Shown here one piece after another: positions 5,956 to 57,800 of a stretch of DNA of 64,000 nucleotides. Under the pieces are notes generated by a model that ran no database searches, was not told the origin of the DNA, and worked only from the letters and a program-made list of their open reading frames with translations. This stretch comes from an uncultured Phycisphaerales bacterium (GTDB lineage Bacteria > Planctomycetota > Phycisphaerae > Tepidisphaerales > Tepidisphaeraceae): positions 512,001 to 576,000 of the forward strand of contig CAWJPJ010000008.1 of NCBI GenBank assembly GCA_963844715.1, in the 5' to 3' direction. Every line of letters begins with the position of its first letter. Within the stretch, counting starts at the first letter, position 1. Both the position numbers and the translations under genes were made by a program.

Positions 5956-6071
5956 GAAATACAAATGCAATGCAGGGGAGGAGGAAAAACCCCATAAGGC
6001 CCGTCCTGCGGAAACTGCCGGAGTCCTCGCCTGCAACCCTACCACTTTTTCCGACGTCCCCTAACCGTCCA
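5956..6071 (+). repeat. Dispersed structured element, copy 1 (candidate ncRNA or MITE)
   Basis: aaatacaaatgcaatgc...gcccgtcctgcggaaactgccggagtcctc...ccgtcca matches 33819 and 57489. Confidence 0.8.
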
Positions 6072-6297
6072 TGGGAAAGAACAGTGCGCGCTCGAAAGCA
6101 TCGCAACCCCCCGGTCAGTGAACGCATAAGGCAGCTACTTTATATTTTGTCTGCGGTTCAAGGTCACAAATTGTGACTTTAAAAATCGGGGAAGAGTTGG
6201 ACGTTTGAGGTGCCGGCTTGGAACTTCAAGTTCGCGAGGGGAGCTTGGTATCGCAATTTGCGTTACCCGTTCTCGGGGGATATTTGAAGATTAGGGA

Positions 6298-6323
6298 CGC
6301 GCCGTGCGAGCACGGCCGCTAAA
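6298..6323. repeat. REP-like CGC-hairpin-CGCTAAA element
   Basis: gccgtgc-ga-gcacggc-cgctaaa; sister copy at 8661-8687. Confidence 0.55.
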
Positions 6324-6349
6324 GGGGCGGGGTCCCAGCGTGGGAGGGG

Positions 6350-7810
6350 TTATAGGTTTGGTCGGCGGGTGTGCCAGTCTGTGGCTTTTTCGTACATGCG
6401 GGCGATTTTTAGGAGGGTTTGTTCGCCGAAGTGGGGGCCTAGGAGTTGTAGGCCGATTGGCAATGGTTTTTCTGCGGTGGTGAAACCGCAGGGGAGGCTT
6501 AGGCCTGCGATGGCGGCGATGTTGCAGGTGACGGTGAAGACGTCGCAGAGATACATTTGGAGGGGGTCGCCGGTTTTTTCGCCGGCTTTGAAGGCGGGGG
6601 TGGGGCTGGTGGGGCAGAGGATGACGTCGCATTTTTTGAAGGCTTGGTCGAAATCATTTTTGATTAGGGCTCGGATTTTTAGGGCGCGGAGATAATACGC
6701 GTCGTAATAGCCGGAGGAGAGGGCGTAGGTTCCGATCATGATTCGGCGTTGGACTTCTTCGCCGAAGGCTTCGGCTCGGGATTTGGAGAAGAGTTCGATG
6801 ATGTCCTTGACGGGATCCTTGGTGCGATGGCCGAAGTGGACGCCGTCGTAGCGGGCGAGGTTGCTGCTGGCTTCGCAGGGGGCGATGACGTAGTAGGCGG
6901 CGATGCCGTATTCGGTGTGGGGGAGCGAGACTTCGACGATCTCGGCGCCGAGTTTTTTGTAGGTTTCGATGGCGGCATCCACGGCGGATTTAACCTGGGG
7001 GTCGAGGCCGGCGGTGAGCTGGTATTCCTTGGCGATGCCGATGCGGAGGTTGGGGAAGGGCTGGTCGAGATCTTTTAGGTAATCGGGGACGGGGGTGTTT
7101 ACGCTGGTGGAATCCTTGGGGTCGTGGCCGGCGAGGACGTTCATCAGGAGAGCGGCGTCGGGGACATTGTGTGCGAAGGGGCCGATCTGGTCGAGGCTGG
7201 AGGCGAAGGCGACGAGGCCGTAGCGGGAGACTCGGCCGTAGGTGGGTTTTAGGCCGACGAGGCCGCAGAGGGCGGCGGGTTGGCGGATGGAGCCGCCGGT
7301 GTCGGAGCCGATAGATGCGCAGCACATTCCCGCGGCGAGGGCAGCGGCGGAGCCGCCGGAGGAGCCGCCGGGGACTCTAGTGGTGTCCCAGGGATTGCGG
7401 GTGGTTTTGAAGGCGCTGTTTTCGGTGCTGGAGCCCATGGCGAATTCATCTAAGTTCGTTTTTCCGACGGGGATGGCGCCGGCGGCTTCTAGTTTTTTGC
7501 AAATGGTGGCGTCGTAGGGGGCGCGGAAATTTTCCAGCATTTTGGAGCTGCAGGTGGTGGTGCCGTAGCTGGTGCAGAGGTTGTCCTTGAGAGCGATGGG
7601 GACGCCGGCGAGGGGGCCGGTGATTTTTCCTTCGTCCACTTCTTTTGCGCGCTGGAGGGCGCGGTCGGGGTAGAGGGAATTGAAGGCCTGGATTTTGGGA
7701 TCGAGTTTTGCGATCTGGTCGAGGGCCTGCTGGGTGAGCTGGACGGCGGAGATTTTTTTATCTCGGACGGCGTTTCTGGCGGCAAGGAGGGTGTCGTAGG
7801 CGAGGGGCAT
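6350..7810 (-). CDS. gatA: Asp/Glu-tRNA amidotransferase subunit A
   Basis: Amidase signature GKTNLDEFAMGSSTENS, PGGSSGGS, GSDTGGSIRQPA. Confidence 0.97.
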   Translation of the reverse strand: MPLAYDTLLAARNAVRDKKISAVQLTQQALDQIAKLDPKIQAFNSLYPDRALQRAKEVDEGKITGPLAGVPIALKDNLCTSYGTTTCSSKMLENFRAPYDATICKKLEAAGAIPVGKTNLDEFAMGSSTENSAFKTTRNPWDTTRVPGGSSGGSAAALAAGMCCASIGSDTGGSIRQPAALCGLVGLKPTYGRVSRYGLVAFASSLDQIGPFAHNVPDAALLMNVLAGHDPKDSTSVNTPVPDYLKDLDQPFPNLRIGIAKEYQLTAGLDPQVKSAVDAAIETYKKLGAEIVEVSLPHTEYGIAAYYVIAPCEASSNLARYDGVHFGHRTKDPVKDIIELFSKSRAEAFGEEVQRRIMIGTYALSSGYYDAYYLRALKIRALIKNDFDQAFKKCDVILCPTSPTPAFKAGEKTGDPLQMYLCDVFTVTCNIAAIAGLSLPCGFTTAEKPLPIGLQLLGPHFGEQTLLKIARMYEKATDWHTRRPNL

Positions 7811-7814
7811 GGGC

Positions 7815-8132
7815 TTATCCGGCGGAATCTTCGTCGCCGCCGATGACTTTGGGCACCTTGAAGAAGGGGCCGTCGGAATCGGGGGCGTTTTCGAGAACTT
7901 TTTCGAGGGGGAGACTGGGCTCGACGATGTCATCGCGGAAGACGTTGTGGATGGGCAGGGCGTGAGCCATGGGCTCGACGCCGGTGATGTCGACCTTGGA
8001 GATTTGGGCGACGTAGTCGAGGATGGATTCGAGTTGTCCGGCGAATTTTTGCAGGCGCGATTCGTCGAGGGCCAATCGCGAGAGCATGGCGACGTGGCGG
8101 ACCTGGTCGAGGGTGATTTTCTGGCCGGGCAT
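7815..8132 (-). CDS. gatC: Asp/Glu-tRNA amidotransferase subunit C
   Basis: VRHVAMLSRL...NAPDSDGPFFKVPKV; directly upstream of gatA. Confidence 0.95.
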   Translation of the reverse strand: MPGQKITLDQVRHVAMLSRLALDESRLQKFAGQLESILDYVAQISKVDITGVEPMAHALPIHNVFRDDIVEPSLPLEKVLENAPDSDGPFFKVPKVIGGDEDSAG

Positions 8133-8171
8133 GGAGACTAGGGTAACGGCGAAGAATAAAAAGACAAAATG

Positions 8172-8288
8172 AACCGCCAAGCCGCGGAGGACGCCAAGAT
8201 AAGACCGCCAATAAAAATACAGAGGGATTTAAATTTCTTCTTGCGCTCTGAGCTTGGCGTGCTTGGCGTGCTTGGCGTCTTGGCGGTT
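8172..8288. repeat. Nonamer-based palindromic element (AACCGCCAAG...CTTGGCGGTT)
   Basis: Inverted arms with tandem cttggcgtg units; same architecture as 46568-46685. Confidence 0.75.
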
Positions 8289-8293
8289 TTATA

Positions 8294-8545
8294 TCAAGCC
8301 GCTGATTTTGTGCGATGCTTGGGTTTTTGGACGAGGCCGTTGCGGATGGCTTTGGCGCTGACTTTGATTCGGACGACCTGGCCGTTGATGACGGCTCGGA
8401 CGCGTTGGATGTTGGGTTTGAATTTTCGGGAGGAGATGCCGGTGATTTTGGTTCCGACGCCGCCGAGGTATTTGGCTTTGCCGCGGTGGGTGACCTTGTG
8501 GCCGTAACTGGTTTTTTTGCCGGTGAAATGACAAGTGCGTGGCAT
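8294..8545 (-). CDS. rpmB: 50S ribosomal protein L28
   Basis: MPRTCHFTGKK...RGKAKYLGGVG...FKPNIQ. Confidence 0.93.
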   Translation of the reverse strand: MPRTCHFTGKKTSYGHKVTHRGKAKYLGGVGTKITGISSRKFKPNIQRVRAVINGQVVRIKVSAKAIRNGLVQKPKHRTKSAA

Positions 8546-8660
8546 AGGGGGCCTTGATAGAGAGTTAAAAACTGGTCGGGGGGGACACTTTAGCGAATGC
8601 GGGGGATGATGCAAGTGGGGGGATGGAATGGTGGTGGGGTGGGTTGGGGGTGGGGGGGAC

Positions 8661-8687
8661 CGCGCGGTGCTGCGCACCGCCGCTAAA
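8661..8687. repeat. REP-like CGC-hairpin-CGCTAAA element
   Basis: gcggtgc-tgc-gcaccgc-cgctaaa. Confidence 0.55.
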
Positions 8688-8737
8688 TATGGGGAGGGTG
8701 GGGCGAGATTTTGTGGCTGGCGATGAAAGGGGGATGT

Positions 8738-9756
8738 TTAGGCGGTTAGGGCGGAGAGGCGTGGGATTTGGGGTCTTGGTGATTCGCCGGCGACGTCGGG
8801 GATTTGGACGAGGCCGAGGGGCGCTGTGGTGCCGCGGTCGAGGATTTTTCCGGTGAGCCAGAGGAGGGTTGGGCGACCGGTCTGGCCGTGGCGGAGTAGA
8901 TCGGCGACGGCGTTGGCTTCATCGGCGCTGGTGACGAAGTAGCCGGTGCAGGGGGAATCGTCGGCGCAGCCGATGGCGGCAATGGAGATTCTGCCCGGGA
9001 CGTCGACCTGGGCCTGGGCGAGAAGGTTCAGGGTTTCGCGCGCGCCGGAGAGTGAATCACAGATGCAGGCGGTGGCGCCGTTTTCGACGGCGACGAGGAT
9101 GTCGCGCGGATAGCATGAATCGACGGAGACGTCGGCGCCGTAAGAGGGAGCGAGACGGCGGATGGTTTCGGTGATGAGGGTCTGGTTGCGTCCTTCGACG
9201 GCGACGAAGCGGCGGTGACCGCCGAGGAGAAGATTTCGGGCGATGTGGGAAGCGCCGAGGCGCGGTCGACGAGGACGGCGCTGGTGGAATAGGTTCGGGG
9301 CTCGCGGCCGACGGTGACGACGGGGATGTTTCTCACGAGCAGGTCGCGGACGAAGGGCTCGGGGGTGTTGCCCGCCAAGTCGACGACGGCGGCGAACTGG
9401 CTGAGGAAGCTGGGACGCAGGAGGGCGAGATCGGCGGTGACCTGAGCCTGGGGATTGAGGCTGCGCAGGTGATGGACGATGGCGGGCTCGACATCCTGAT
9501 CGGTGACGAGGAGCCAGGGTCCGTCGGCAGCGGCATCGGCGGCGCTGGAGCCGCGGACAAAGGTGCCACGTCCGATACTGCGGGCGAGCAATCCTTCGGC
9601 GGCGAGATCGGTGAGGGCTTTGCTGAGGGTTTTGGCGTTGACGTGGAAGCGTCGCGCCAGCTCGCGTTCGCCAGGAAGTTTTCCTGAGAGTTCGCCTGAC
9701 TCCACCGCCTGGCGGATTTTTTCGCGCAAGCGTTGGAACTTGTAGCTCATCCCCAT
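8738..9756 (-). CDS. GntR HTH + LacI-type periplasmic-binding-fold regulator (frameshift near 9260)
   Basis: KLPGERELARRFHVNAKTLSKALTDLAAEGLL...GRGTFV; shifted frame gives LLLGGHRR...VDVPGRISIAAIG. Confidence 0.85.
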
Positions 9757-9809
9757 GGTTCGACGTCTGGGATGAGTAGAATCTCCGGTTTCCATTTCAA
9801 ATCCTTTTG

Positions 9810-9828
9810 GATGTACGTTACGTACATC
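9810..9828. promoter_or_regulatory. Perfect palindrome, candidate operator
   Basis: gatgtacgt-t-acgtacatc upstream of the GntR gene. Confidence 0.55.
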
Positions 9829-10092
9829 AGCCGGTAGAAAAGTTTCGACTTATGTTATCGGCCCCATCGCTGCAGGCGAAAAGTGAACCGTGTTACCTTA
9901 TCATTCGGCCAGCGAGTCGCCTGCATTAGACTAATTTTTCGGACGGAGCCTAGATTTAGCAGATTTTGCAATTTCGTCCATATCATCTGTTAGGAAAAAG
10001 ACAAAAGAACGGGCAATGATTCGCCGGCGAACGGATGTTATGCTTAAAATGGGGGCAGGTTGGTGCACCGGGGATTTTAGGAAGGAGCGGGG

Positions 10093-11151
10093 ATGAAACT
10101 ACACAAGGGTTGTCTTTTTGGATTGCTCCTTTCGCTTTTTGCGCCAGGACGGGCCGCCGCAATGGATTGGAAACAGCTCGGGGGGATCGAAGCGGGGGTA
10201 TTGAACAGCCCGGGCTGGGATTTGGCGGCGGATGTGCTGGACCGGTGGGCTTGGAGGCATTCGGGGCGGGAATTGGCGGCGCAGGAGCGGACGTGGGGGC
10301 TATTTTTGCCAGGGAAGATCGACGAAAAGCGGCCGCTGGTGATCTTGGTGCATGGATTGGATGGGGATCGGGGGTCGTGCGCGGATTTGTCGCGGTTGCT
10401 GGAGGCGGATGGATTTCAGACGGGGGTTTTCTGTTATGCGGGGGAGGCGCCGCTGGGTTGCAGCGCTGCAATACTGGCGGAGAATTGCCGGGCGCTGCAT
10501 GAAACGTTTCCGAAACTAACTATCGACTTTGTGACGCAAAGCATGGGGGGGCTGATTGTGCGGGATTATGTGGAGGGGGACGATTACCGCGGGGGGGTGG
10601 ATCGGCTGATCATGATCTGCCCGCCGAATGAGGGGTCGAAGTGGGCGGCGCTTTCGCCGATCAGCAAGCTGGCGGTAAACGAATGGCGGTGGCGGCATGA
10701 TCCGGGGTGGAGCGCGGTGTGGATGATCGGGGAGGGATTGTGCCAGGCGGGGAGGGATTTGGTTCCGGATTCGCGATTTTTGGGGGAGCTGAATGAGCGG
10801 GAGCGGTGCGCGGGGGTGAAGTATACGATCATTGCGGGGAATGAGCCGGTGGGGGATCGGGTGGCGGCGGATTTTTTGGAGGTGGTGGGGAATGCATTGC
10901 CGCTGGCATTGGATGGGGCGTGGCCGAGCAAACAGATTCATGCGTGGGCGACGGCGGGGGCGGAGGCGCTGCGATTCAAGATCGGGGCGAGCGACGGGCC
11001 GGTGAGTTTGCAGAGCGCGGGGCTGGCGGGTGTGGGGGACGTCGTGGTGGTACATGCGGATCATCTGGCGCTGTTTGAATCGGAGGGCGGCGGGGAGCCG
11101 GCGGCTTGGCCGGTGATTCGCCAGCGGCTGGAAGCGAGCGATGGGCACTGA
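10093..11151 (+). CDS. Secreted alpha/beta hydrolase (lipase/esterase-like)
   Basis: Signal peptide; LVHGL, QSMGG nucleophile elbow, PPNEGS, SDGPV, H. Confidence 0.8.
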   Translation: MKLHKGCLFGLLLSLFAPGRAAAMDWKQLGGIEAGVLNSPGWDLAADVLDRWAWRHSGRELAAQERTWGLFLPGKIDEKRPLVILVHGLDGDRGSCADLSRLLEADGFQTGVFCYAGEAPLGCSAAILAENCRALHETFPKLTIDFVTQSMGGLIVRDYVEGDDYRGGVDRLIMICPPNEGSKWAALSPISKLAVNEWRWRHDPGWSAVWMIGEGLCQAGRDLVPDSRFLGELNERERCAGVKYTIIAGNEPVGDRVAADFLEVVGNALPLALDGAWPSKQIHAWATAGAEALRFKIGASDGPVSLQSAGLAGVGDVVVVHADHLALFESEGGGEPAAWPVIRQRLEASDGH

Positions 11152-12033
11152 ATCGGATTTTTTGCAATGGATCGCGGGACAGTCGGCGGGCTCGCCGCTC
11201 GTGAAAGTCGGCGTGGGGGATGACCTGGCGGTGCTGAAATGGGCGGGGGACGATTTGCTTTTGGTGGGGGTGGACCAGGTGATGGATGGGGTGCATTTCG
11301 ATTCGAAGAAACATTCGCCGCGACAGATTGGGAGGAAGGTGGTGAATCGGAATTTTTCGGATTGCGCGGCGATGGGGTGTTTGCCGGCGGCGATCGTGGC
11401 GACGGTGGCGCTGCCGCGGGATTATTCGTGGGAGATGGCGAAGGAGTTTTATTTTGGGCTTGCGCGATGCGGCGGATGCTTTTTCTTGCCCGGTGGTGGG
11501 CGGAGATACCGGGGTTTGGGATGGGAAACTTGTCGCGACGGTGACGGTGCTGGGGAGAAGCGCGGGGGTGAAGCCGGTGACGCGCGGGGGAGCGAAGGCG
11601 GGGGATAAGATTTTTGTCACGGGGGCGCTGGGGGGGAGCATTCTTGGTCGGCATATGGATTTTGTTCCTCGAGTCGAGATGGGGAGGGAGATTGCGCCGC
11701 GGGCTTCGGCGATGATTGATATCAGCGATGGGTTGCTGCGGGATTTGGGGAATATTTGCCGGGCTAGCGACGTGGGGGCGATTGTGGAATCGGCGCGGGT
11801 GCCGATTCATTTGGATGCGGTGGAGTTGGCGAAGCGGGATGGGGTTTCGGCGGTGGAGCATGCTTTGCGCGATGGGGAGGATTATGAGCTTTTGTATTGC
11901 TGCGCGGAGGAGATTGGGGTGGGGAGCTGCGTGGGGAGGATCGTTAGCGAGGCGGGGATTTTTTTGGAGGATGAGAGGGGGAGAGGAGGGCGGCGGAAGT
12001 GCGGGGGTGGAACCCGGAGATTGGTAAGAGCTA
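11141..12033 (+). CDS. thiL: Thiamine-monophosphate kinase (frameshifts near 11460 and at the 3' end)
   Basis: GVGDDLA, NFSDCAAMG, GGDT, MIDISDGL, GEDYEL. Confidence 0.9.
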
Positions 12034-12117
12034 GGCTGGTGGACTCGAGAGGGGCGTGCGGTTGCGCGAAGGCGTTCTTGGGTGGCGATTGGCGTCTTGC
12101 GGCGCCGCGGCTTTCTG

Positions 12118-12736: not shown

Positions 12737-12756
12737 AAATCTATTTTATCCTATCG

Positions 12757-12780
12757 GCCAATTATTGGCAATATTTGGCA
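12757..12780. promoter_or_regulatory. Candidate ParD operator
   Basis: gccaa-tta-ttggc palindrome plus repeated ttggca, about 20 nt upstream of parD. Confidence 0.45.
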
Positions 12781-13318: not shown

Positions 13319-13362
13319 CCCTCACCCGTCCTGCGGAAACTGGCGGAAGACAGGGCGAGGGA
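13319..13362 (+). repeat. CCCTCACCC-type hairpin carrying the core of the dispersed element
   Basis: ccctcacccgtcctgcggaaactggcggaagacagggcgaggg. Confidence 0.65.
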
Positions 13363-22909: not shown

Positions 22910-24475
22910 GTGAGCTGCATTAGCGCGCACGATCCGCAATTGACTCGTTTAGCCAATGCGATCGCACAGCGGGTGGGGCCGCAGCGATTTCACGTCTGGT
23001 TCAATAATTCCACGCGACTGGATTTGAAGCAGGACGGGCTGGAGATCGCCGTCCCGAATGATTTCATCAGCGAATGGATCGGGACGCATTTCGGCGGTCC
23101 GATTCAAGAGGCGGCGCAGGAAGTTCTGGGATGTTCGCTGGCGGTGCGGTTCAACGTCATGCCGCAATTGTTCGAGACAGACACGACGGACGGGGGGGAA
23201 AATAAGAATGGGAATGGGAAGGGTGAGGAGGCCGTGGCGCCGATGGCGGTGGTGAAGGCGCGGCGCGGTGAGACGGTGGCGGCAGCAGCGGTGGCGGAAA
23301 GCACGGTACGCGTGACGACGGCGAATTTGTGGGGATCGAAAATTTCGGGCGGGGGGACGGCGGTAGCGCCGGCGCGGAAGACTTCGACTCTTGACGCGGA
23401 CGCGGCGCTGAGCCGGCTTCGGTTGCGTCACGACATCGAAACGTTCATCATCGGGCAAAGCAATCAACTGGCGCACAGCACGGCGCTTTACGTCTCTGAA
23501 TATCCGGGGGCGCAATACAATCCGCTGTTCCTGCACGGGGGATGCGGGCTGGGGAAGACGCATCTTTTGCAGGGATTATGCAAGCGATTCATCCAGAATC
23601 ACCCGGCGAAGCGATGGATGTATCTGACCGGCGAGGAATTCACGAACGAATTTTTGAATGCGCTGCGGACGAACAAAATCGAGGCGTTCCGGCGGCGGAT
23701 GCGCGAGCTGGATCTGCTGGTGATCGACGACGTGCATTTCCTGGGGGGCAAGAAGGCGACGCAGGAGGAATTCCTGCACACGTTCAACGCCATCGAGGCG
23801 ATGGGCCGGCAAGTGGTGATGGTCAGCGATAATCATCCCAAGCTGATCGAGGAGTTCGGGGAGTCGCTGATCAACCGGTTTATCAGCGGGATGGTGGTTC
23901 GGATCGATCCGCCGAATTTCGCGACGCGGTGCGAGATTTTGCGGAGTTTGGCGCATCGGGCGGGGATCGGGATGCCGGAGGAAGTGGTGGGATGGATCGC
24001 GCGGCGGGTGACGCAGAATGTGAGGGAGTTGGAAGGGGCGGCGATGCGCATAGCGGCGCATGCGACGGTTCAGCAGCGCGACGCGGATGTGGCGATGGCG
24101 CAGGCGGCGTTGGGGGACCTGGACAAGCATCTGGTGGCGCCGGTGAGGCCGGAGGGCGTGCTGGACATTGTCTGCGAATATTTCAGCCTGGATTCGAAGG
24201 ATTTGATGTCGGGGCGGCGACAGCGGACGATCAGCCTGGCGCGCAGCGTGGCGATGTATCTGGTGCGGAAATTGTCGAAATTAAGTTTCCCGGAGATTGG
24301 GATGAAGATGGGTAAGAGGAATCACAGCACGGTGATTTCGGCTTGCCGGCGGATCGAGCGGGCGCTGGCGCGGAACGAGCCTTTGATCTGGAACAATCAT
24401 CTTGGGGAGCGGCATGAAGAGGCGTGTGAGCTGATTCAGCGGCTGGAGGAGCAGAGCCGGGCGCGGGGTAGATGA
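22910..24475 (+). CDS. dnaA: Chromosomal replication initiator DnaA
   Basis: YNPLFLHGGCGLGKTHL, LLVIDDVHF, TQEEFLHTFN, NVRELEGA, AMYL...SFPEIG...NHSTV; RBS aaggag plus GTG. Confidence 0.96.
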   Translation: MSCISAHDPQLTRLANAIAQRVGPQRFHVWFNNSTRLDLKQDGLEIAVPNDFISEWIGTHFGGPIQEAAQEVLGCSLAVRFNVMPQLFETDTTDGGENKNGNGKGEEAVAPMAVVKARRGETVAAAAVAESTVRVTTANLWGSKISGGGTAVAPARKTSTLDADAALSRLRLRHDIETFIIGQSNQLAHSTALYVSEYPGAQYNPLFLHGGCGLGKTHLLQGLCKRFIQNHPAKRWMYLTGEEFTNEFLNALRTNKIEAFRRRMRELDLLVIDDVHFLGGKKATQEEFLHTFNAIEAMGRQVVMVSDNHPKLIEEFGESLINRFISGMVVRIDPPNFATRCEILRSLAHRAGIGMPEEVVGWIARRVTQNVRELEGAAMRIAAHATVQQRDADVAMAQAALGDLDKHLVAPVRPEGVLDIVCEYFSLDSKDLMSGRRQRTISLARSVAMYLVRKLSKLSFPEIGMKMGKRNHSTVISACRRIERALARNEPLIWNNHLGERHEEACELIQRLEEQSRARGR

Positions 24476-32516: not shown

Positions 32517-33690
32517 TCGAATCTCCTCGATGTCAGTCGTCCAGCGTGGCGGGATCGGCGGCTCTCCGCCGGTCCGAGGCGGCAACGAGGGTCTTCCCGC
32601 CGCCAGGAGTCGAACTGACCGCTGGCGATGCTTCGGCGGATGTCCGCCATCAGCCGCTGGTAGAATCGAATATTATGCACGGAAACGAGGATCGGGCCAA
32701 GCATCTCGCCGGCATAAAAAAGGTGGCGGATGGCGCCGCGGCTGAAGCGTAGGCAGGCTGGGCAATCGCAACCGGGCTGGATGGGGGCGATATCGCGCTG
32801 AAATTGCGCATTTCTGAGGCGCAGGGGGCCGGAGGGGGTGAAGGCGTAGGCGTTGCGGCCGTTGCGGGTGGGGAGGACGCAGTCAAACATATCGATGCCT
32901 GCGGCGACGGCGGCGACGATGTCGCGCGGGTAGCCGACGCCCATGAGATAGCGGGGACGATCTTCGGGGAGCATGGGGGTGGTTTGGCGGACGATGGAAT
33001 CCATGGCGGCGAAGCCTTCGCCGACGGCGAGGCCGCCGAGGGCGTAGCCGTCAAAGTTCATTTCGACGAGGCGGCGGGCGCACATTTCACGCAGCGGCAT
33101 ATCGACGCCGCCCTGGACGATTCCGAAGAGAGCTTGATCGCTAGCGCGGGCATGCGCGGCCAGGCATTGCTCGGCCCAGCGCAGGGTGCGCTCGACGGCG
33201 GCGCGATGGGCTTCGGCGGGCGCATCGGCGGCCGGGCACTGGTCGAAGGCCATGATGATGTCGGCGCCGAGATGATTCTGGACGGCGATGCTTTTGGCGG
33301 CGTCGAGGAAGATGGTGCTGCCGTCGATGTGGCTTTTGAAGGTGACGCCGGAGTCGTCGATGCGATTGATGTCGGCCAGGGAGAAGACCTGGAACCCGCC
33401 GCTGTCGGTGAGGATGGGACCAGGCCAGCCCATCATGGCGTGAAGATCGCCGAGATCGGCGACGACTTTTTCGCCGGGGCGCAGCATGAGGTGGTAGGTG
33501 TTGGCCAGGAGAATTTGGCGCCGGCGGCGGTGAGGTTTTCGGGGAGCATTCCTTTGACGGAGGCTTGGGTGCCGACGGGCATGAAGGCTGGGGTGTCGAA
33601 GGAGCCGTGGCGAGTGGTGGCGCGGGCGGTGCGCGCGGAGGTGAGGTTGTCCTGGTGCTGGATTTCAAATTGAAGGGGGCGCGGGGTCAT
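32513..33690 (-). CDS. tgt: Queuine tRNA-ribosyltransferase (frameshift near 33515)
   Basis: [46 protein letters not shown]. Confidence 0.95.
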
Positions 33691-33818: not shown

Positions 33819-34016
33819 GCTCGTTTTAAATACAAATGCAATGCGGGAGGGCGGGAAAACCATATGAGGCCCGTCCTGCGGAAACTGCCGGAATCCTCCC
33901 GCACCCTCCCACCCTTTCCTTTTCCCCTCAAGCCGTCCAGCACCCCAAATGCAGGGAATTTGCGGGCCTAATTCGGTTCGATGTTCCGGCTGACGGAGGT
34001 CGGTCCTTCGCGCTTT
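33819..34016 (+). repeat. Dispersed structured element, copy 2
   Basis: Aligns by eye with 57489-57690 over about 200 nt. Confidence 0.8.
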
Positions 34017-36115: not shown

Positions 36116-36595
36116 ATCGCCGCGCTGGCTTATGTGAGAATTCTAGTTGCACCTTGTTTGGCTATTTAAGCTTCGGCGGCGATTGTTCTTGTTTGGCCAG
36201 CATTACCTGCACGTAAAATTTGACGCTATCTTCCGAGCCATTCAGAAGGAACTTACCTATCTTTGCGAGCGGGAATGTGAATCGTTTTGGCGGCGTCCAT
36301 AAAACGGCCACAGTTCCAATGTCCTTTCCAAATTGACCCAGTTTTGGTTCGAGTGCGAGAGCCTGCTCGTAGTCGACCCAATGCCACACTATTGAAGGGA
36401 GCGCGTGACGGCGGAGCACCTCGCCAATATAGGCTCCGGCGCGGAGGATAAAGATTTTTTGCTCCTGCCCGGCTAGATTTCGAGCGCGCATTGCTTCGAG
36501 GTGTTTGTCCATCGCGTCGAGACTGTCGACTGAAAAATCAAACTTGGTTGGGTCAATTAAATCATTTCCCGGTGTGATGATTTTTGAATCACTAA

Positions 36596-37969
36596 CAGGA
36601 CGCTGAAAAACTCGGGAGTTGGCGCATTTTCCTGTCTGTTGGCCGCTTTTCAATGGCGGGTTCCATCTCGGATCGTTCCAAGGGCTTCAGTTCGTTCGAG
36701 TTCGTTGGCGGATTGCATGCCCAGGTTGAGTTTCACACGGTACTCAGGTTGCGCATCCGGATCAGATTGAACGCCGCCCCGGCCAGGTGGGCCTGCTGGC
36801 CGGTTTTTGAATGTCCGATCAACCGGGTGCGATACAGGCCGCCGATCGTCTTGGCCCAGCCGATCCATTCCTCGATCTTCTTGCGGCAACGCTGGCTGAT
36901 GGCGTAACCGAGGGTCTTGCGCGCCGACGCATCCGCTGGCGGGCCGCGATGTTGGCTCGGTTCTTCCAGCGATAGGCGGCGGTGTCGCCGCCGATCTTGC
37001 CCTCCTTCACCGCCACGTGCGGACGGATTCTTCTTCGCTCCAGCCCACGCAACAGCGGACCCTGGTCGTACCCCTTGTCGGCCCCAACCGTCTTGGGTTT
37101 GAGCCCAAAACGTTTCTTGACCCGATCGATCAGCGACAACGCGGTGACCGGCTCGCTGTTCTCCAGCGGCGAGTTGACTTCCACCGCCAGCACCAGCCCG
37201 TGGCGGTTCTCCACGATCGCGTGCAGCGCATGGCTGAGCAACGCCGGCTTGCCGTCGCTCTTGCGGACCAGCTTCGCGTCGGAATCGGTGGTTGATTCGT
37301 GGGTGTCGTTGGACCGCTTCTGGCCGTGGAAGTCCACCTCGGCGTTGCGGCCCTTAAAACCGTTGTTATCTCCCGCATCATTGTCTTTTTTGTCCTTTTC
37401 ATCCCTGGGTTTGAAGCTCTTGATCGACGCATACGCCTCGATCAGCGAGCCATCCACCGAGAAGTGGTCGGGGCTGACCAGTCCCGCGGCGATGGCCCGA
37501 CGCACCGTGCCGTCGAAAAACGCGCCGATCAGCCCGTGCTCTTCCAGCCGCCCGCGATTGTGCGAGAAGACGGTGGCGTCGAATACCTCTTCGTCGATCC
37601 GCAGGTCCAAAAACCAACGGAACAGCAGGTCGTGATCAATCCGTTCCACGAGCTGCGCCTCGGAGCGAATCGAATAGATCGATTGCAAAAGCAACGCCTT
37701 GATCAGCCGCTCCGGCGGCACGCTGGGCCGGCCTTCGGCCGCGTAGGCGGCATCAAAACGCCGACTCATGGCCTTCAAGTCTTCATCGACCATGCGCTTC
37801 ACGGCCCGCAGCGGATGATCAGGACGGACGCGTTGTTCCAGATCGATGGCCGCGATGAACAAAATGGATTGGGGATCGGCCTTGCCTCGCATGAATGACC
37901 TCCGTGTCTGGGTGTCACACAGTTCAGCGCCACCGAGAACATTCGTCAAGAGGGTTTTTCAGCGTCCTG
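36596..37969 (-). mobile_element. IS5/IS1182-like insertion sequence, 1374 bp
   Basis: Perfect 16-bp TIR caggacgctgaaaaac (36596-36611 and 37954-37969); CTAA target duplication (36592-36595 and 37970-37973). Confidence 0.93.
36733..37892 (-). CDS. DDE transposase (frameshift near 36915)
   Basis: GRPSVPPE, LLFRWFL, FSVDGSLI, GADKGYD; shifted tail RKKIEEWIGWAK...AFNLIRM. Confidence 0.92.
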
Positions 37970-38087
37970 CTAAGGAACATTAGCGAAAGGTCGATTAGGG
38001 CTCGGTCTTGAATTGTGATTGCCATATCTGTCGCCCCCTGGTCGAAAGCTCGATCCCGCTTGGTGATCGGAGCGATGTCTATCTTAG

Positions 38088-50010: not shown

Positions 50011-51940
50011 CTAATTAAATCGTTGTCGTGAATAAGGCGAAGTTCGGAATCGAGGTCCCGGTTTTCCAGGACCGTTTTGGCGGCGCGGACGAGTTCGGTG
50101 ATGGTGAACGGCTGGCCGCGAACTTTGCTGAGGCCTTTGGCGTCGACGAGGAATTTCCGCGCAAGAGGAGGCGAAGCTGGCCGAGGTTGAGTTCCGGGAC
50201 CAGGAGTTTTTGAATGCTTGGATGAGTTCGCCGAGGCGCTGCGGGAGGGGGTTGATATAGCGAATATGAGCCGCGGAGACGGGGAGGCCGGCCTCGCGGA
50301 GTTGCAGGGTGGCGGCTTTGATGGCGCCGAAGGTTCCGCCCCAGCCTAAGAGAAGGAGGTCGCCGGATTCGGGGCCGGTCATGACGAGATCGTGACCGGC
50401 GGGCTGGATGCCGGCGACTTTTGCGGCGCGGAGGCGGACCATGCGTTCGTGATTGGCGGCGTCGTAGCTGACGGTGCCGGTGATTTCCTGTTTTTCGAGG
50501 CCGCCGATGCGGTGCTCGAGGCCGGGCGTTCCGGGGAGGGCCCAGGGGCGGACGAGATCGGAATTGCGTTTGTAGGGCATGGAACGCGTTCGCCGTTGGC
50601 GGACGGATGCTGGATGGAGATTCTGGGGAGTTTGTCGACGTCGGGAATGAGCCAGGGTTCGGCTCCATTGGCGATGTATCCGTCGGAGAGGAGGACGACG
50701 GGGGTCATGTATCGCGTGGCGATGGTGAAGGCTTCGATGGCCGCCTGGAAGCAGTCGGAAGGGGAGCACGCCGCGATGACGGGGACGGGGCATTCGCCGT
50801 TGCGGCCGTACATGACCTGGAGGAGATCGGCTTGCTCGGTTTTTGTGGGAAGGCCGGTGCTGGGTCCGCCGCGCTGGACATCGACGACGACGACGGGCAA
50901 TTCGGTGATGACGGCCAGACCCATGGCTTCGGACTTGAGGGCGATGCCGGGGCCGCTGGTGCCGGTTGCGCCGAGCGCACCGCCGAAGCTGGCGCCGATG
51001 GCGGCGCCGATGGCGGAGATTTCGTCCTCGGCCTGGAATGTGATGACGCCGAAATGTTTCTGGGCGGCAAGATTATGCAGAATGTCGCTGGCGGGGGTGA
51101 TCGGGTAGCCGCAGTAAACTAACGGCTTACCGGCGAGCCTTGAGGCGGCGATCATCCCCATGGCGAGGGCTTCGTTGCCGGTGATTTTGCGATATTTGCC
51201 TGGCGGGGAGCTTGGCTTTGGGGACCTGGTATTGCTCGTGGAAGAGTTCGGCGGTTTCGCCGTAGTTAAAGCCGGCTTTGAGGGCCAGGGAGTTGGCGAG
51301 GGCGACGGCGGGTTTTTTGGCGAACTTGGCGGCGATGTGCTCGAGGGTCGAGGTCGAGCGGCCTGCCATAGAGCCAATAGACCACGCCGAGGGCGAACAT
51401 GTTTTTGCAGCGATTCGATTCCTTGGTTCCAAGGCCCGATTCCTTGGTGGCGGCGGCGTTGAGCTTGTCGATGGGGACGCGGACGAGGCGATAGCGACTC
51501 AGGGAGCCGTCATCGAGGGGGTTATTGGCGTAGCCGGCCTTGCGGAGGTCGATGGCGGCGAAGGAATCTTCGTCGACGATGATGATGCCGCCGTCGCGGA
51601 CGCTGGAAAGATTGGTCTTGAGGGCGGCGGGGTTCATGGCGACGAGAGCGTCGACTTCATCGCCGGGGGTGAAGATTTCGGTGCTGGCGAAGTGGATTTG
51701 GTATCCGCTGACGCCGGCGAGAGTTCCAGCCGGGGCGCGGATTTCGGCGGGGAAATCGGGGAGGGTGCTGATGTCGTTGCCGATGGCGGCGGAGGTATCG
51801 GTGAATTGCGTCCCGGCGAGCTGCATTCCGTCGCCGCTGTCGCCGGCGAAGCGAACGGTGACGCTGGGGAGGGTGGTGGTAGGCTTGCGCGGCGCGGCGG
51901 ATGGAGCGCCATCCTGGGCCGTATCTGTCGTGGTACTCAT
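50011..51940 (-). CDS. korA: 2-oxoacid:ferredoxin oxidoreductase alpha subunit (several frameshifts)
   Basis: [48 protein letters not shown]. Confidence 0.92.
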
Positions 51941-52151
51941 TCGTCACAAACCTCTGTCTGATAGCCCAGCCACCCACCGGTGGGGAGCGAATTTCTACTA
52001 ATTCAACATGGATAGTCGAAAGTAGCGTCTTTAGGCTCGCCTCGCAACCCGTGCACTTCTAACCAAATCTTAACTTGCCTAAATTAACTTTTTTTAGTGA
52101 AAACCCTCGATTTTATTGACGCAGAGGGGGTAGAGTGGTTTGATAAGGCGT

Positions 52152-52406
52152 ATGCGGCAGCTGTATCACACCATCATCAAGCCGGAAACGAACGGAGTTT
52201 ACGTAGGATGGGTAGAGGAGATTCCCGGGGCAATGACCTACGGGAAGACCCTGGAGGAGTGCCGGCGGAATCTGCGGGAGTCGCTGCTGATCATGGTCGA
52301 GACACACCGGGACGAGGCGCGGGTGGGACTGGGGCCGGAGTGCATTCAGGAGTCGATCGAAATCGATACGGAGGAGTTGCCGGATCGGTTTGAGTTGCCT
52401 GCCTAA
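52152..52406 (+). CDS. HicB-like antitoxin
   Basis: YVGWVEEIPGAMTYGKTLEECRRNLRESL. Confidence 0.8.
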   Translation: MRQLYHTIIKPETNGVYVGWVEEIPGAMTYGKTLEECRRNLRESLLIMVETHRDEARVGLGPECIQESIEIDTEELPDRFELPA

Positions 52407-52524
52407 TCGGGTCTTTATTTAAGCCCATTCATTAGTCGGTCGCCAAAACTGCAAAGCGCGGATGCTTGAATAGCTCGTTTGACACTGACGCGTGAATCGA
52501 ATGTTGGTTCTACTGCGGGGATGA

Positions 52525-53314
52525 TTAGGCCTTGCGCCAGAACGCGCCTTGCCCGTCAATCGGGGTGATCGACTCGGCGATGTTGTTGCGCTTGCGGTAG
52601 TCGTCGACGGCCTGTCGGCATTCGATGATGTGATTGTATTCGTCGATGATCGCAAATCCGCCGGGGGACAGGCCGGGATAGAGGTTTTCTAGAGCGACCA
52701 TCGTCGACTCGTACATGTCGCCGTCGAGGCGAATCAGGGACCAGCGATGATGGCGCGAGCTTTGGAAGCGAATCGGAAAAAAAACCTTTTATGAATCGGA
52801 TGCGCTCGTCGAGGAGTCCGTAGCGGGCAAAGTTTGCCGCGACCTGTTCCTGGGAGACGGAAAGCAACTCGTACTTGTATAGGTCGATTTTGGCGTCCTG
52901 GGGATAGGCCTCGACGTTGGGGCGGGGAAGGCCCTCGAATGAATCGGCAACGTAAACGTCGCGGTCGTTGGCGTCGTATGCCATGAGCACGGCACGCATG
53001 AATATGGTGCACCCGCCGCGCCACACGCCGGTTTCAATCAGGTCGCCGGGAACATTGTGCTGCAATATTTTTTCGATGCATTCCCGCACGTTCTGGAGAC
53101 GTTTGTGTCCGACCATCGTTTCGGCGTTGAAAGGCAAATCGTTTCCTTCAAGTCGCGGATGAGTGGGAGATAAAGCTTGCAGCGTGACCTGGGTCATATG
53201 GCCGTCGGCCGCCATGGTGTACATGTGAGCGGAGTCGGTGAGCGTCATCTTCAGCAAATCGAGGTAGGCCGAGCGCACTCGCGGCAAAAGGGGATTTGGA
53301 TTTGCGTCGGACAT
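52525..53314 (-). CDS. TylF/MycF O-methyltransferase (frameshift near 52745)
   Basis: VPGDLIETGVWRGG, DSFEGLP, IRLDGDMYEST. Confidence 0.9.
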
Positions 53315-54719
53315 GAAGCTCCGTGGAGGATTTTTCGCCGGTTGGCCAGTCTAAGCAGGGCGCGAAATCAAAGCAATTACGGCCGAGTCGACTGGGAAGA
53401 GCTTTGGGTTTGTTCGGGCGCAGCGGCGCGGCTTCGACGCCGATGAGGCGCTGCCTGCCTGTGTACTTCGGCGTGGTGGTGTCCTGGACTTGCTGCTGGG
53501 CCTGGACGATCTGGTTGCGCACGGCGTCTTGTTGGGATTGGAGAACGATGCGGTCCTGCTGCAATTTTCTGTTGTCGTCGGAGAGCTGGTAGTAAATCTG
53601 CGGGAGGGGGACTTGATAGATAATGCCGTTTTCGCCGGCGATGTAGCTGCCGGCTTCGAGGCGGTGCATCTGGCGCGTGTTTTGATCGGTCTCGGCGTCG
53701 ATCTGGCCCAGGCGCTGTTGAATGGCGTCGAACTGATTTTGCAGATCGGCGACCTGCTGCTTGACTCGGTTTTCAACGGCTTGCAATTGGGCGAGTTGAT
53801 CGGAGGTGACCCAGCCGGCGCCCCAGCGGTAGAGGCCGTCTTTGGCGCGGCGGGCGCGAAGGAGGGTGTCCTGGTCGCGGAAATCGGCGGCAGCCTGCTG
53901 GCCGAGCGTGGTTTGGGCGTCGGTTGGGCTCAGGGCGGCGAGGGCTTCGGCGACGTTATCGAGAATCGGCTGGGCGACGGGGGCGGCGAGCATAGCCTGA
54001 TCGTAGAAACCCATCGCGGCTGTTTGCGCGCCGAGGCGCCATGCGGTGACGGCCAGATTGTTGAGCGTGGGGCCGTAATTGGGGGCGATGGAGTTGGCCA
54101 AGGCGAAATTGTCGCGGGCCTTGGTGAGTTGGTTTTGGTTATAGAGCTGGACGCCTTGAATAAAGATCGCGGTGGCGTTTTGGGGGTCGTCGAGGAGGGC
54201 CTGATTTAAAAGTTCAGTTGCTTCTTCGGTGTGATTTTGCAGCAGTAGATCGCGGGCGGCGATGGATTCGGTTTGGCTGACCTGGCGGAGTTTGCCGCGC
54301 TGATCGGGGGTGACCCAGCGGGTGCCGACTTTAACGAGGCCCTGGGTCTGACGGTCCTGCCAGGTTTGCAGATCCAGTTTGGCTTCGGCGAGGACCTGTG
54401 GGTCGGTGTTGGCGGCGATGAATCGCTGGTAGCGCGGGATGATCAGCAAGATGTCATCCAGCGATTCGACGGCGCGGCGCAGGGAGGCGAGGCCGTCCAT
54501 GGCGGCCTGGGGCGCTGGGGCGGTGGCGACGACCTGAATGGAGGCGATGCGGTCGGGGGCGACGGCGAGGACTTTTCCATCGTCGCGATTGATGATCCAT
54601 CCGTCGGGGGTTTTTCTGGCGCGGCCGTGGAGGACGGTTCCGTCATTGAGAGTGATGATGTCGCCGCGGGCGATCGACGCCGCTCCGAGGATGGCGGCCG
54701 CAATCCAGCGCAGATTCAT
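53148..54719 (-). CDS. Secreted TPR/coiled-coil hypothetical protein (3' end uncertain)
   Basis: Signal peptide, DIITLNDG; TPR-like LNNLAV; the overlap with tylF suggests a terminal frameshift. Confidence 0.65.
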   Translation of the reverse strand: MNLRWIAAAILGAASIARGDIITLNDGTVLHGRARKTPDGWIINRDDGKVLAVAPDRIASIQVVATAPAPQAAMDGLASLRRAVESLDDILLIIPRYQRFIAANTDPQVLAEAKLDLQTWQDRQTQGLVKVGTRWVTPDQRGKLRQVSQTESIAARDLLLQNHTEEATELLNQALLDDPQNATAIFIQGVQLYNQNQLTKARDNFALANSIAPNYGPTLNNLAVTAWRLGAQTAAMGFYDQAMLAAPVAQPILDNVAEALAALSPTDAQTTLGQQAAADFRDQDTLLRARRAKDGLYRWGAGWVTSDQLAQLQAVENRVKQQVADLQNQFDAIQQRLGQIDAETDQNTRQMHRLEAGSYIAGENGIIYQVPLPQIYYQLSDDNRKLQQDRIVLQSQQDAVRNQIVQAQQQVQDTTTPKYTGRQRLIGVEAAPLRPNKPKALPSRLGRNCFDFAPCLDWPTGEKSSTELHVRRKSKSPFAASALGLPRFAEDDAHRLRSHVHHGGRRPYDPGHAASFISHSSAT

Positions 54720-54802
54720 GTCGAGCCTCCGGCGAACGGTTCATTTTAGACGCGGCCTTTCGATTGGGAAACCGCGTGGGGGTGATTTACAATTCGCGGC
54801 CC

Positions 54803-55700
54803 ATGCCTGGAACGGACGGCCCGTGGACAATTCGGCGGTTGCTGGAGTGGACGACGGGGTATTTTACGCGCAAGGAGATCGACTCGCCGCGGTTGTCGGC
54901 GGAGTTGCTTTTGGCGCACGTGCTGGAACTGCCGCGGATCAAGCTTTACACGAATTATGAGCGCGTGGTCGAGGAGAAGAATCTGACCGCGTTTCGGGAG
55001 CTGGTTCGTGCGCGCGGCGGAGCAGGAGCCGATCGCTTATCTGACCGGGCGGGCGCATTTTTTCAATTTGGAATTCGAGGTGACGCCGGACGTGCTGATT
55101 CCGCGCCCGGATACGGAGACGCTGGTTGAGAACGTGATCCAACTGATCCGGCACGAGAAGGGATTGGAGTCGCCGCGGATTCTGGATTTGTGCACGGGGA
55201 GCGGGTGCATCGCGGCGACGATTGCGCATCAAGTGAAGGGGTCGATCGTGCTGGCGACGGAGATCAATCCGGCGGCGGCGGGGCTGGCGCGGCGGAATAT
55301 CCAGAGGCTGGGGTTGTCGGAACGGGTGACGGTTATGGAGGGGGATTTATTTCAGCCGCTGGAGCAGACGATCGATCGGTTGCCGTTTCAGTTGATCGTG
55401 GCTAATCCGCCTTATGTTCCTACGGGGCAGATCGCGGGGTTGGACCGGAATGTGCGGGATTTTGAGCCGGTTGCGGCGCTGGACGGGGGATTGGATGGAT
55501 TGGCGATTCATCGTCGAATTTTGCAGCAAGCACCGGCGAAGCTTTCGCCGGGAGGGCATATTTTTCTGGAGATCGCGTTCGATCAGGGGGAGTTGGCCAT
55601 CGAATTGGCGAAGGAACATGCGGAGTTTATCGAGGCGAAGGTGTTGAAGGATCATGGGGGGAATGATCGGGTGCTGACGGCTCGGATTAAACCCGAATGA
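54803..55700 (+). CDS. prmC: Release-factor glutamine methyltransferase (frameshift near 55010)
   Basis: VLIPRPDTE, LDLCTGSGCIA, ANPPY, ALDGGLDGL. Confidence 0.93.
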
Positions 55701-55798
55701 CGAAACCAGAAATCCGAATCAAATCCGAAACCAGAATGAGCCATAGCATTCGGCCATTCGGGCTTCTGGTTTGATTCTGGTTTCTGGTTTCGGATTTC
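55689..55798. repeat. Heptamer-based palindromic element between convergent prmC and rpsI
   Basis: Same arm as 20388; its first units supply the prmC end KPE*. Confidence 0.85.
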
Positions 55799-55803
55799 CA
55801 GTT

Positions 55804-56253
55804 TTATCGCTTGGAGAACTGGAATCGTCGGCGGGCGCCGCGTTGGCCGTATTTTTTGCGTTCTTTCATTCGGCTGTCGCGGGTGAGGAAGCCTGCGTTT
55901 CTGAGGGGGACTTCGAGGGTGCTGTCGAACTTGGCGAGGGCTCGGCCGAGACCCATGACGATGGCGCCGGATTGGCCGGTGGCGCCGCCGCCGTTGCAGC
56001 GTGCCCAGACGTCCATTTTTCCGCCGGTGCTGGTGACTTCGAGGGGTCCGAAGATGGATTTTCTATCGCCTTCGGAGGTGAAGAATTCGTTGAGGGTTCG
56101 GCCGTTGACTTCGATCTTGCCGGTGCCGGGGGCGACGCGGACGCGGGCGACGGACGATTTTCTGCGGCCGACGCCCCAGGTGTAGACGGGTTTGGCTTTG
56201 GGGGCATCGGATGCTGGAGCAGTTGTTTCAGCGGTGGGCGCGTCTTGCGACAT
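55804..56253 (-). CDS. rpsI: 30S ribosomal protein S9
   Basis: GRRKSSVARV, LTRDSRMKERKKYG, FQFSKR. Confidence 0.97.
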   Translation of the reverse strand: MSQDAPTAETTAPASDAPKAKPVYTWGVGRRKSSVARVRVAPGTGKIEVNGRTLNEFFTSEGDRKSIFGPLEVTSTGGKMDVWARCNGGGATGQSGAIVMGLGRALAKFDSTLEVPLRNAGFLTRDSRMKERKKYGQRGARRRFQFSKR

Positions 56254-56276
56254 GGTCGTGTGTTCCGTGGTTGAAG

Positions 56277-56708
56277 TTACGCGAGTTTCAATTCCTTGGG
56301 TTGCTGGGCGGAGTGGGGATGTTTATCGCCTTTGTAGATTTTGACTTTGCCGAGGATGTTGCGGCCCATCTTGCTCTTGGGGAGCATGCGGCGGACGGCG
56401 AGTTCGATTAACTTCTCCGGGTGCAGGGCCTTCATGGTTTTGTAGTCGTAGAGATGGCGGCCGCCGGGATAGCGGGAGTAGGTTTCATATTGCAAGACGT
56501 CGGCCTTCTTGCCGGTGACTCTGATTTTTTCGGCGTTGAGGACGATGACGAAATCGCCGGTGTCTACGTGTGGGGTGTAGGTCGGCTTGTTCTTTCCCTG
56601 AACGATGCCGGCGATTTTGGAGGCGAGCCGGCCGAGGACTTGGTTTGTGGCGTCGACCACATACCACTGCGCGACGACTTCGCCCGGCTTGGCCATGTAT
56701 GTGCTCAT
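56277..56708 (-). CDS. rplM: 50S ribosomal protein L13
   Basis: WYVVDA...LGRLAS, YTPHVDTGD, MLPK, HPHSAQQP. Confidence 0.97.
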   Translation of the reverse strand: MSTYMAKPGEVVAQWYVVDATNQVLGRLASKIAGIVQGKNKPTYTPHVDTGDFVIVLNAEKIRVTGKKADVLQYETYSRYPGGRHLYDYKTMKALHPEKLIELAVRRMLPKSKMGRNILGKVKIYKGDKHPHSAQQPKELKLA

Positions 56709-56741
56709 CTGCATTTCCTGTCGGAATTTTCGAGAAAAAAA

Positions 56742-56815
56742 CTTCCGGTTCGGCGGACGAAAACCGCCGGAACCAGAAGGGAGGGCCATCGTACCGGGGA
56801 GGGCGGACGTGTCAA
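56742..56815 (-). promoter_or_regulatory. Sigma70-like promoter and 5' leader hairpin of rplM-rpsI
   Basis: Minus strand TTGACA(56815)-N16-TACGAT; hairpin at 56742-56779. Confidence 0.6.
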
Positions 56816-56948
56816 TAGGCGGGCGGTTTTGGCCGGTTGGGGGTAGGCAAGGGAATATGGGCAAAAAAATATTTAATTTTCGCGATTTCTGGCGTAGCAA
56901 CGTGGAAATCAGTTGCTATAGTCCGCCTCAATTCGGAGGTTGGCCTGC

Positions 56949-57212
56949 GTGGCGTTTACCGTACGTGAGGTTCAGCCGACTCCGAATCCGAACGCGATGA
57001 AATTCGTGCTGGACCGCTCGATCAGCGACCAACCGGCAAGCTTTTTTAATTCGCAATCGGCCCAGGGTCACCCGGTAGCGTCCCATCTGTTTGCGGTGCC
57101 GGGGGTGAGCAGTCTGCTCCTTCTTGGAGATTTTGTAACGGTCAATAAGAGTCCCGATGCCAAGTGGCCGGACATTACCGCACAAGTCAAAAGGGCACTA
57201 GCGTCGATATGA
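56949..57212 (+). CDS. Nfu/NifU N-terminal scaffold-domain protein
   Basis: PTPNPNAMKF...LFAVPGV...DFVTVNK...W. Confidence 0.88.
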   Translation: MAFTVREVQPTPNPNAMKFVLDRSISDQPASFFNSQSAQGHPVASHLFAVPGVSSLLLLGDFVTVNKSPDAKWPDITAQVKRALASI

Positions 57213-57320
57213 ATTTAGCCGGGTCAATGCACCGGCTGATGAAGAGCGCGGGAAACTTAGTTATCGGACGAACGTAGTATTTAAAGAAGCAATCAATCAC
57301 ACGGAGTTTCTTCCCTCCTT

Positions 57321-57357
57321 ACCCCGTAGGTCTCACCCACGCCTACGGGGTTTTTTT
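57321..57357 (+). terminator. Intrinsic terminator
   Basis: accccgtagg/cctacggggt 10-bp stem followed by a T-tract. Confidence 0.8.
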
Positions 57358-57488
57358 GCGCATTTGTGATAGGCGGGCCGAAGGCCAATACGCATTCTGC
57401 CCCTTATGACAGATTCCATTTGAGTTCCGGGCGCATTCCATTTCGCCCTTCGTACTTGTGTCCGCCTGATACATTTTTGAGGCAATGG

Positions 57489-57800
57489 CGCTCGTTTGAA
57501 ATGCAAATGCAATGCGGGGAGGCGGGAGACACCCATACGGCCCGTCCTGCGGAAACTGCCAGAATCCTCCCCCGCACCCCTCCATCCTCTTCCACTTCCC
57601 CTCAGCCCGTCCATGACCCCCAAATGCGGGAAGGTAAAGCGGGGTTCGCTGGGTTGGTCCGGCTCCGAAGGATCGGTCTTTCTCGCTTTTCCCCCGGACG
57701 GTGAGGGGAAAAGGAGTGGGGATGGGTGGGTGCGGGAGGGAGGGGGCGAAACTTTTGGGGCCGTATATGGTTCGCCCCTTCCCTCCCGCTTTGCATTCGA
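57489..57800 (+). repeat. Dispersed structured element, copy 3, with an inverted partner arm
   Basis: Core at 57540-57568; 57696-57797 is a degenerate inverted copy of 57505-57612. Confidence 0.8.

Follow-up and report, generated by a model that had tools for sequence, protein, structure and literature searches.

A dispersed intergenic repeat of Tepidisphaeraceae with the sequence pattern of a class I purine-motif DNA triplex

The closest described counterparts of the element treated here are the BoxC/PIT triplex repeats, which fold in vitro (Holder et al. 2015, PMC4666352; also Hoyne et al. 2000, as cited there). The triads of the purine motif are G.GC, A.AT and T.AT (PMC4666352), T appears as the natural choice at C.G inversions (PMC6158708) and, according to Holder et al., purine-motif helices cannot form in RNA (PMC4666352). 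Two other groups of dispersed repeats, REP/BIME/REPIN and extended TwoAYGGAY, are compared below. Here we analyse a 64,000-nucleotide (nt) stretch of DNA from an uncultured Phycisphaerales bacterium of the family Tepidisphaeraceae (contig CAWJPJ010000008.1, positions 512,001 to 576,000; hereafter the window, with positions counted from its first letter) and in it a dispersed intergenic repeat of about 115 base pairs (bp). The genome that holds the window is labelled G000; G001, G137 and the like are relatives in the genome set, and the family was scanned as 141 Tepidisphaeraceae genomes. A literature search found no paper on this repeat family.

The repeat is a real element, far above chance: a genome-wide nhmmer profile (40 matches in total) finds 19 full-length copies in G000 with E values of 1e-30 to 7e-8, and a covariance model also finds 19. 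These fall into 15 loci, four of which are tail-to-tail doublets, and 11 of the 19 copies are solo. A sequence-only reading of the window had described three copies, all on the + strand, each with a common head, a 24-25-nt spacer, a near-invariant core, a C/T-rich tract and an end in CCGTCC; these parts are present as described. The core, however, is missing from 9/19 copies, and it is these that show the base form. AATGC-type repeats and a purine arm come first in it; then follow a loop in which the motif GGCCCCAA is conserved, the pyrimidine arm, a linker of 3 nt and the C-rich tract, and the tail has CCGTCC at its end. What had been taken for a plain spacer is thus the purine arm plus half of the loop, and the C/T-rich tract is the mirror of the purine arm. 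On the opposite strand, the purine strand, the tail is at the front, followed by the G/A/T third strand, the 3-nt linker, the purine arm, the loop, the pyrimidine arm and the AATGC-type repeats.

The stems are 17-23 bp long and enclose a loop of 16-20 nt in the base form (12-21 nt over 16 intact copies). Covariation, proposed earlier as a check, is found between the arms: in an alignment of 56 copies that was fitted to the structure, two-sided changes occur at 15/15 modelled pairs, and 96.1% of the hairpin cells are paired, against 75.9% after shuffling. When G000 was scanned for triplex motifs in general, 14 motifs of class I and 66 of class II appeared, against none in the locally shuffled sequence, and 8/14 class I motifs belong to this repeat family. 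Three more class I triplex-like motifs have short loops (G000:C7:895140-895215, C7:883579 and C8:6969); the first shares its head and its 3-nt linker with the repeat family and may be a short relative of it.

The strongest pattern lies in the third strand. The C-rich tract is a mirror, not a complement, of the pyrimidine arm, and its opposite strand is made up of G, A and T and runs antiparallel to the purine arm. Scored by the purine-motif (reverse-Hoogsteen) code, 106 distinct intact copies, parsed from 231 matches after duplicates, interrupted and unparsed copies had been dropped, reach 1202/1272; permuting the third strands between copies gives 1002±10. If each distinct arm is represented by a single copy, the score is 458/492 versus 371±6, and a set of 27 copies, two mis-parsed rows included, gives 310.5/351 versus 271.9±4.9, with 0/20,000 permutations as high. 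On the purine strand, G faces G at 952/995 positions, A or T faces A at 162/176 and T faces C at 88/98; the linker is 3 nt long in 89/106 copies. In all, 41 different arms are each matched by a third strand of their own. By the definitions of Holder et al. (PMC4666352), this pattern points to a class I purine-motif triplex that the opposite strand is predicted to form. Watson-Crick copying does not keep a mirror strand in step, and hence something must select the fold.

Mismatches in the stem lean the same way: among 135, G.T occurs 71 times on the purine strand and 4 times on the other, and counted by distinct context (n=45) the numbers are 18 and 6. These data bear on the idea, raised by the sequence-only reading, of a multicopy structured RNA, in which the C-rich strand would be transcribed and form a hairpin, a 3' pseudoknot and a pyrimidine-motif triple helix, much like an extended TwoAYGGAY element. 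The strong hairpin covariation speaks for it, as does the resemblance of the head repeats, the 3' pseudoknot and the doublets to features of that class in the available text of bioRxiv 10.64898/2026.09.22.753630. However, the C-rich third strand has A at 48/176 positions facing A and 88/98 C inversions, which misfits the pyrimidine motif, and G.U pairs occupy just 15/840 cells. No sigma-70-like promoter or terminator is seen in 57200-58000, and an Rfam scan of the window, in keeping with the sequence-only reading, which did not recognise the family, gave no match at gathering score; at 11 loci the Rfam matches over the repeat are microRNA-hairpin models far below threshold, and a tRNA/tmRNA search found none. 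Since the third strand fits the purine motif, a fold stated to be impossible for RNA, and the mismatches favour the opposite strand, we consider the RNA explanation improbable.

The tail is able to form base pairs with the loop, on the 3' side of the latter: at positions 3-6, 149/272 cells agree, against 100±7 (68 copies of 148 matches; 45 unparsed). Such pairing would give an H-type pseudoknot, in whose major groove the third strand would lie. The signal for it is weaker than that of the third strand because it comes mainly from two subtypes, a and b.

Four copies lie in the window. Copy 1 (5956-6073, +; subtype b, solo) stands between a + glycosyltransferase gene and a - amidase gene. Copy 2 (33827-33940, +; subtype a, solo) lies between der/engA and tgt and is followed by a stretch (33941-34016, +) that resembles the spacer of the copy 3/4 doublet. 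The reported alignment of copies 2 and 3 over about 200 nt holds, with 77% identity across 207 nt; the extra ~80 nt that they have in common are doublet spacer, and judging from this stretch copy 2 is likely a former doublet that has lost its partner. The tgt gene is split at 33517 by a one-base deletion that is absent from a run X1 contig, likely an assembly error. Copy 3 (57498-57614, +; subtype b) is the left member of a tail-to-tail doublet, between a + 90-residue open reading frame (ORF) and a - gene, so that copies 1 and 3 do sit between convergent genes, as had been noted. Its partner across the spacer (57615-57692) is copy 4 (57693-57804, -; subtype a), an intact inverted copy that the earlier description, right about the three + copies, had overlooked. 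The purine strand of copy 4 is the + strand of the window, on which one reads the predicted reverse-Hoogsteen G/A/T strand (57714-57730), the 3-nt linker (57731-57733), the purine arm (57734-57750), a 20-nt loop with a conserved GGGGCC (57751-57770) and the pyrimidine arm (57771-57787); its head of short AATGC-type repeats is at 57788-57804 (-). Copy 4 folds with z -3.6 on both strands relative to shuffles.

Near copy 3, a single-copy non-coding stretch (57258-57357, +; core 57306-57357) follows the 90-residue ORF and ends in a hairpin and a T run. It contains an anti-Shine-Dalgarno-like C/U tract and has matches in 39/61 family genomes (a count that includes the unpublished G004, which was among the family genomes scanned), most with 84-100% identity over ~50 nt; it has no Rfam match. 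We regard this stretch as a candidate small RNA, and a better one than the triplex repeat.

Copies 1-3 are interrupted by the core, which is a 20-nt passenger cassette (6003-6022, 33873-33892 and 57544-57563, all +). Allowing one substitution, the passenger occurs at 46 sites in G000: 10 in this repeat family, 4 in an unrelated ~175-bp repeat and 32, assigned by eye, in BoxC-like repeats, one of them in the window (13328-13347, +). It is not invariant across the repeat family. Compared with the nearest intact host, the passenger stands in for ~14-17 nt in each host family, with a net gain of ~5-8 nt. In the triplex repeat, where it takes the place of about 15-16 nt, half of the loop and the inner pyrimidine arm are lost, and the purine arm and third strand are left intact. 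The short stem with a G-C to A-T swap that had been seen around the core exists, yet it is the remnant of the longer hairpin. Since the inner arm is lost, the folds of copies 1-3 are not better than those of shuffled sequences (z -1.01 to +0.38), and these copies are likely inactive relics; 10/19 copies in G000 carry the passenger and have a broken hairpin. An independently assembled 151-nt contig from run X4 equals 57474-57624 with zero differences, so the core of copy 3 is not an assembly artefact.

Several observations mark the loop as a hot spot. Within the triplex repeat family, the passenger is found on at least three different arm backgrounds, and at the site of copy 3 in G137 the counterpart copy is uninterrupted. 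The exact motif is multicopy in 3/141 family genomes (G000, G001 and G144), and longer, fully palindromic relatives are found at this position of the loop in G019 and G143, and within a second host family in G140. In other genomes the same loop holds at least six unrelated hairpin passengers. Further events there are a tandem duplication and, in a metagenome doublet that could be an assembly chimera, one a/b chimera with its joint in the loop; in G140 and G145, several loci carry identical composite forms. As for the origin of the core, the idea that it consists of two insertion-sequence ends fused together was considered and rejected, no half-core lying beside a transposase in G000; looser core patterns in the family and phylum matched mostly coding sequence, with one match, at chance level, in G004. 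The ~175-bp repeat has short terminal inverted repeats and seven copies (for example G000:C4:137790-137960), three with the passenger and two with an IS5-like element at the edge. G000 also holds at least 84 BoxC-like class II repeats, for example at C8:677990-678620, C4:191750-192210 and C7:1222620-1223110.

A small-peptide gene family, named earlier as an alternative on the basis of the translation RPVLRKLPESS, is rejected. Some core changes are indeed synonymous in that frame. However, there is no common start or stop, the frames diverge on both sides, among the first five codons four have a nearly invariant third position although their first and second positions vary, and the core is both absent from 9/19 copies and present in three unrelated hosts; we give this idea next to no credence.

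The profile search across genomes that had been suggested shows the repeat to be multicopy and confined in range: the model matches 45/141 family genomes, with 1 to ~40 matches per positive genome, and 0/149 other genomes of the phylum. A pattern scan of a species collection returned 27 stretches, 26 of them titled Tepidisphaeraceae or Phycisphaerales, record titles from which we infer the host family; the lone Acidobacteriaceae-titled record has no profile match. The model matches 26/47 metagenome and viral stretches, and the viral contigs gave one pattern match and no model match. In 87 contexts with both neighbouring genes called, 52 are co-oriented, 22 convergent and 13 divergent, and no copy lies within a predicted gene. 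The earlier view of a stand-alone multicopy structured element, not a leader of its neighbours, thus holds.

Close pairs are tail-to-tail in 52/53 cases, and 37/52 combine two subtypes by a crude typing. This geometry, together with absence from a syntenic site in three relatives, would suit a classical miniature inverted-repeat transposable element (MITE), in which the doublet would be what an internal deletion has left of an insertion sequence with long terminal inverted repeats, moved by a DDE transposase with target duplication. Doublets are inverted as MITE ends would be, but their members are usually of two subtypes that differ in stem sequence and each keep an internal fold of their own, and many copies, 11/19 in G000, are solo. 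No pair encloses a gene save one, in G140 (L098:3235-4885), where an IS110-family transposase lies between the members and one tail is truncated. The window contains an IS5/IS1182-like element (36594-37970; DUF772 and DDE_Tnp_1) that has a CTAA-type flank; its inverted ends, 16 bp long, are unrelated to the repeat, and a search, not exhaustive, found no autonomous partner with the same ends as the repeat. A MITE is thus very improbable; of the earlier proposal of a non-autonomous mobile element, possible mobility stands, whereas a target duplication and a cognate transposase were not seen.

Presence and absence can be followed at one syntenic site. The copy 3/4 doublet is missing from the corresponding gap in G001, G002 and G144 (three of five relatives, the other two not being syntenic on the right) and present with the same polarity in G137, a member of another genus. 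Elsewhere, the repeat is retained in most of the orthologous comparisons. Absence here and long retention elsewhere imply that turnover is slow. Slow gain and loss would also be expected of a domesticated chromosomal element, a triplex bound by a host protein (in nucleoid organisation, or in replication or transcription pausing) and maintained by host selection. That orthologous sites in different genera retain the repeat, with compensation among all three strands, fits this, as does the empty search for a mobiliser described below, and all 15 G000 loci lie on two contigs that make up 52% of the assembly (p about 6e-5), whereas BoxC-like repeats occur on 7/8 contigs. On the other side, the repeat was not found in 96/141 family genomes, G001 of the same genus among them, 10/19 G000 copies have a broken hairpin, and origin-proximal clustering was rejected, the copies in G140 being clearly related in position to neither of its two dnaA paralogues. 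We therefore hold domestication to be rather unlikely, though deserving of some weight. Two dnaA paralogues are present in G000 (window 22910-24475; G000:C5:44859) and in four relatives.

On balance, and with moderate confidence, we favour a structure-encoded DNA repeat that is read as single-stranded DNA by a putative nuclease or transposase. As single-stranded DNA, the repeat would take the form of a class I purine-motif triplex that a short pseudoknot closes; the enzyme would recognise this fold and cut at the conserved loop, and the repeat would thereby be kept and copied. Tail-to-tail pairs of two subtypes would then resemble the two ends of a gene-less element, and an enzyme acting at the loop would fit the doublets of two subtypes, the repeated composite forms and the loop hot spot. 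Triplex formation in cells, an enzyme that reads the fold and the loop as cut site are what we infer from these patterns.

A number of findings weigh against this explanation, first among them the search for a mobiliser, in which DUF559, GIY-YIG, Y1 (RAYT), PF05635 and PDDEXK_3 candidates were examined in 5-8 genomes each and which was not exhaustive. The repeat brackets 0/11 DUF559 loci in five repeat-rich relatives, 0/15 GIY-YIG loci, 0/26 Y1 (RAYT) loci and 0/51 four-helix-bundle (PF05635) or PDDEXK_3 loci, and 90 flanking ORFs (of 200 predicted) include no recurring nuclease. Neither a target-site duplication nor a clean empty allele was seen, the empty syntenic sites being too diverged. 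Copies are kept at orthologous sites with flanks only 70-80% alike and across genera, longer than expected for a purely selfish repeat. The strand asymmetry of the mismatches could also stem from biased C-to-T change; the copies are kin, and hence the permutation tests overstate; and the pseudoknot test is largely one of two subtypes, anchored on its first two pairs. Finally, in vivo dimethyl sulphate (DMS) footprinting in Escherichia coli gave no sign of the BoxC triplex (PMC4666352).

Some details of the search stand on their own. One Y1 gene has a single repeat copy nearby, but possesses inverted repeats of its own. BoxC-like motifs bracket 7/11 DUF559 matches tested, and by eye all three DUF559 genes of G000. 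Tandem small GIY-YIG genes with tRNA-like 3' fragments between them lie at G000:C6:558900-559700. A 129-residue ORF between two head-to-head copies in G153 was rejected as mobiliser: it has no Pfam family and 15 hypothetical homologues, and is found in 1/141 family genomes. In runs X1-X4 (depth 2-5) we saw no joint across the repeat.

A bolder version of the favoured explanation, which we think unlikely, would combine a Tepidisphaeraceae system of single-stranded-DNA mobility, with a class I triplex-pseudoknot as its signal, and a second, parasitic process that writes a fixed 20-nt sequence over ~15 nt of folded repeats belonging to three unrelated families, that is, a templated cut-and-fill aimed at DNA structure and not at sequence. 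The passenger does show that unrelated repeat families can have part of a hairpin replaced by one and the same sequence, a hint of structure-directed recombination. More broadly, the repeat bears on whether bacteria select for intrastrand DNA triplexes: 41 arms with third strands of their own and T at C.G inversions are comparative evidence that the fold is read in the cell, and the family supplies natural variants for direct tests of the triplex. Its significance is limited by its narrow host range and by the lack of an enzyme or function found.

How, then, does the repeat compare with known systems? With the extended TwoAYGGAY elements of Pseudomonadota (RF01731; bioRxiv 10.64898/2026.09.22.753630) it has in common dispersed multicopy occurrence, doublets, 5-6-nt end repeats, a 3' pseudoknot and a suspected mobile-element-like spread. 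In contrast to them, it has no AYGGAY hairpins and no RF01731 match, and its doublets are tail-to-tail with the short repeats outside; in the available text of the preprint, the terms 'triplex' and 'Planctomy' do not occur. REP/BIME/REPIN sequences likewise form heterodimers, 40-150 bp apart, and REPs are found within other palindromes (Di Nocera et al. 2013, PMC3733652), but our repeat lacks the terminal GTAG/CGTC tag, has a third strand, measures ~115 bp and brackets no RAYT gene. The likeness to BoxC/PIT/TMECO goes furthest: intergenic, dispersed copies, a G/C-rich hairpin with a mirror third strand making purine-motif triads, a 3-nt linker, inverted pairs and no tie to gene orientation (PMC4666352). 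The order of parts differs, in that the repeat is class I, with the third strand first, whereas BoxC is class II (pyrimidine arm, loop, purine arm, third strand), and so do the dimensions, with stems of 17-23 bp and a conserved loop of about 16-20 nt against arms of 9 nt and loops of 3-6 nt in the TMECO consensus (PMC4666352). Unlike BoxC, the repeat has a tail able to pair with the loop, an AATGC-type head and a single host family, and does not bracket DUF559 genes, as BoxC-like repeats do in G000. By its sequence, it works like the BoxC/PIT triplex repeats and is not a member of BoxC.

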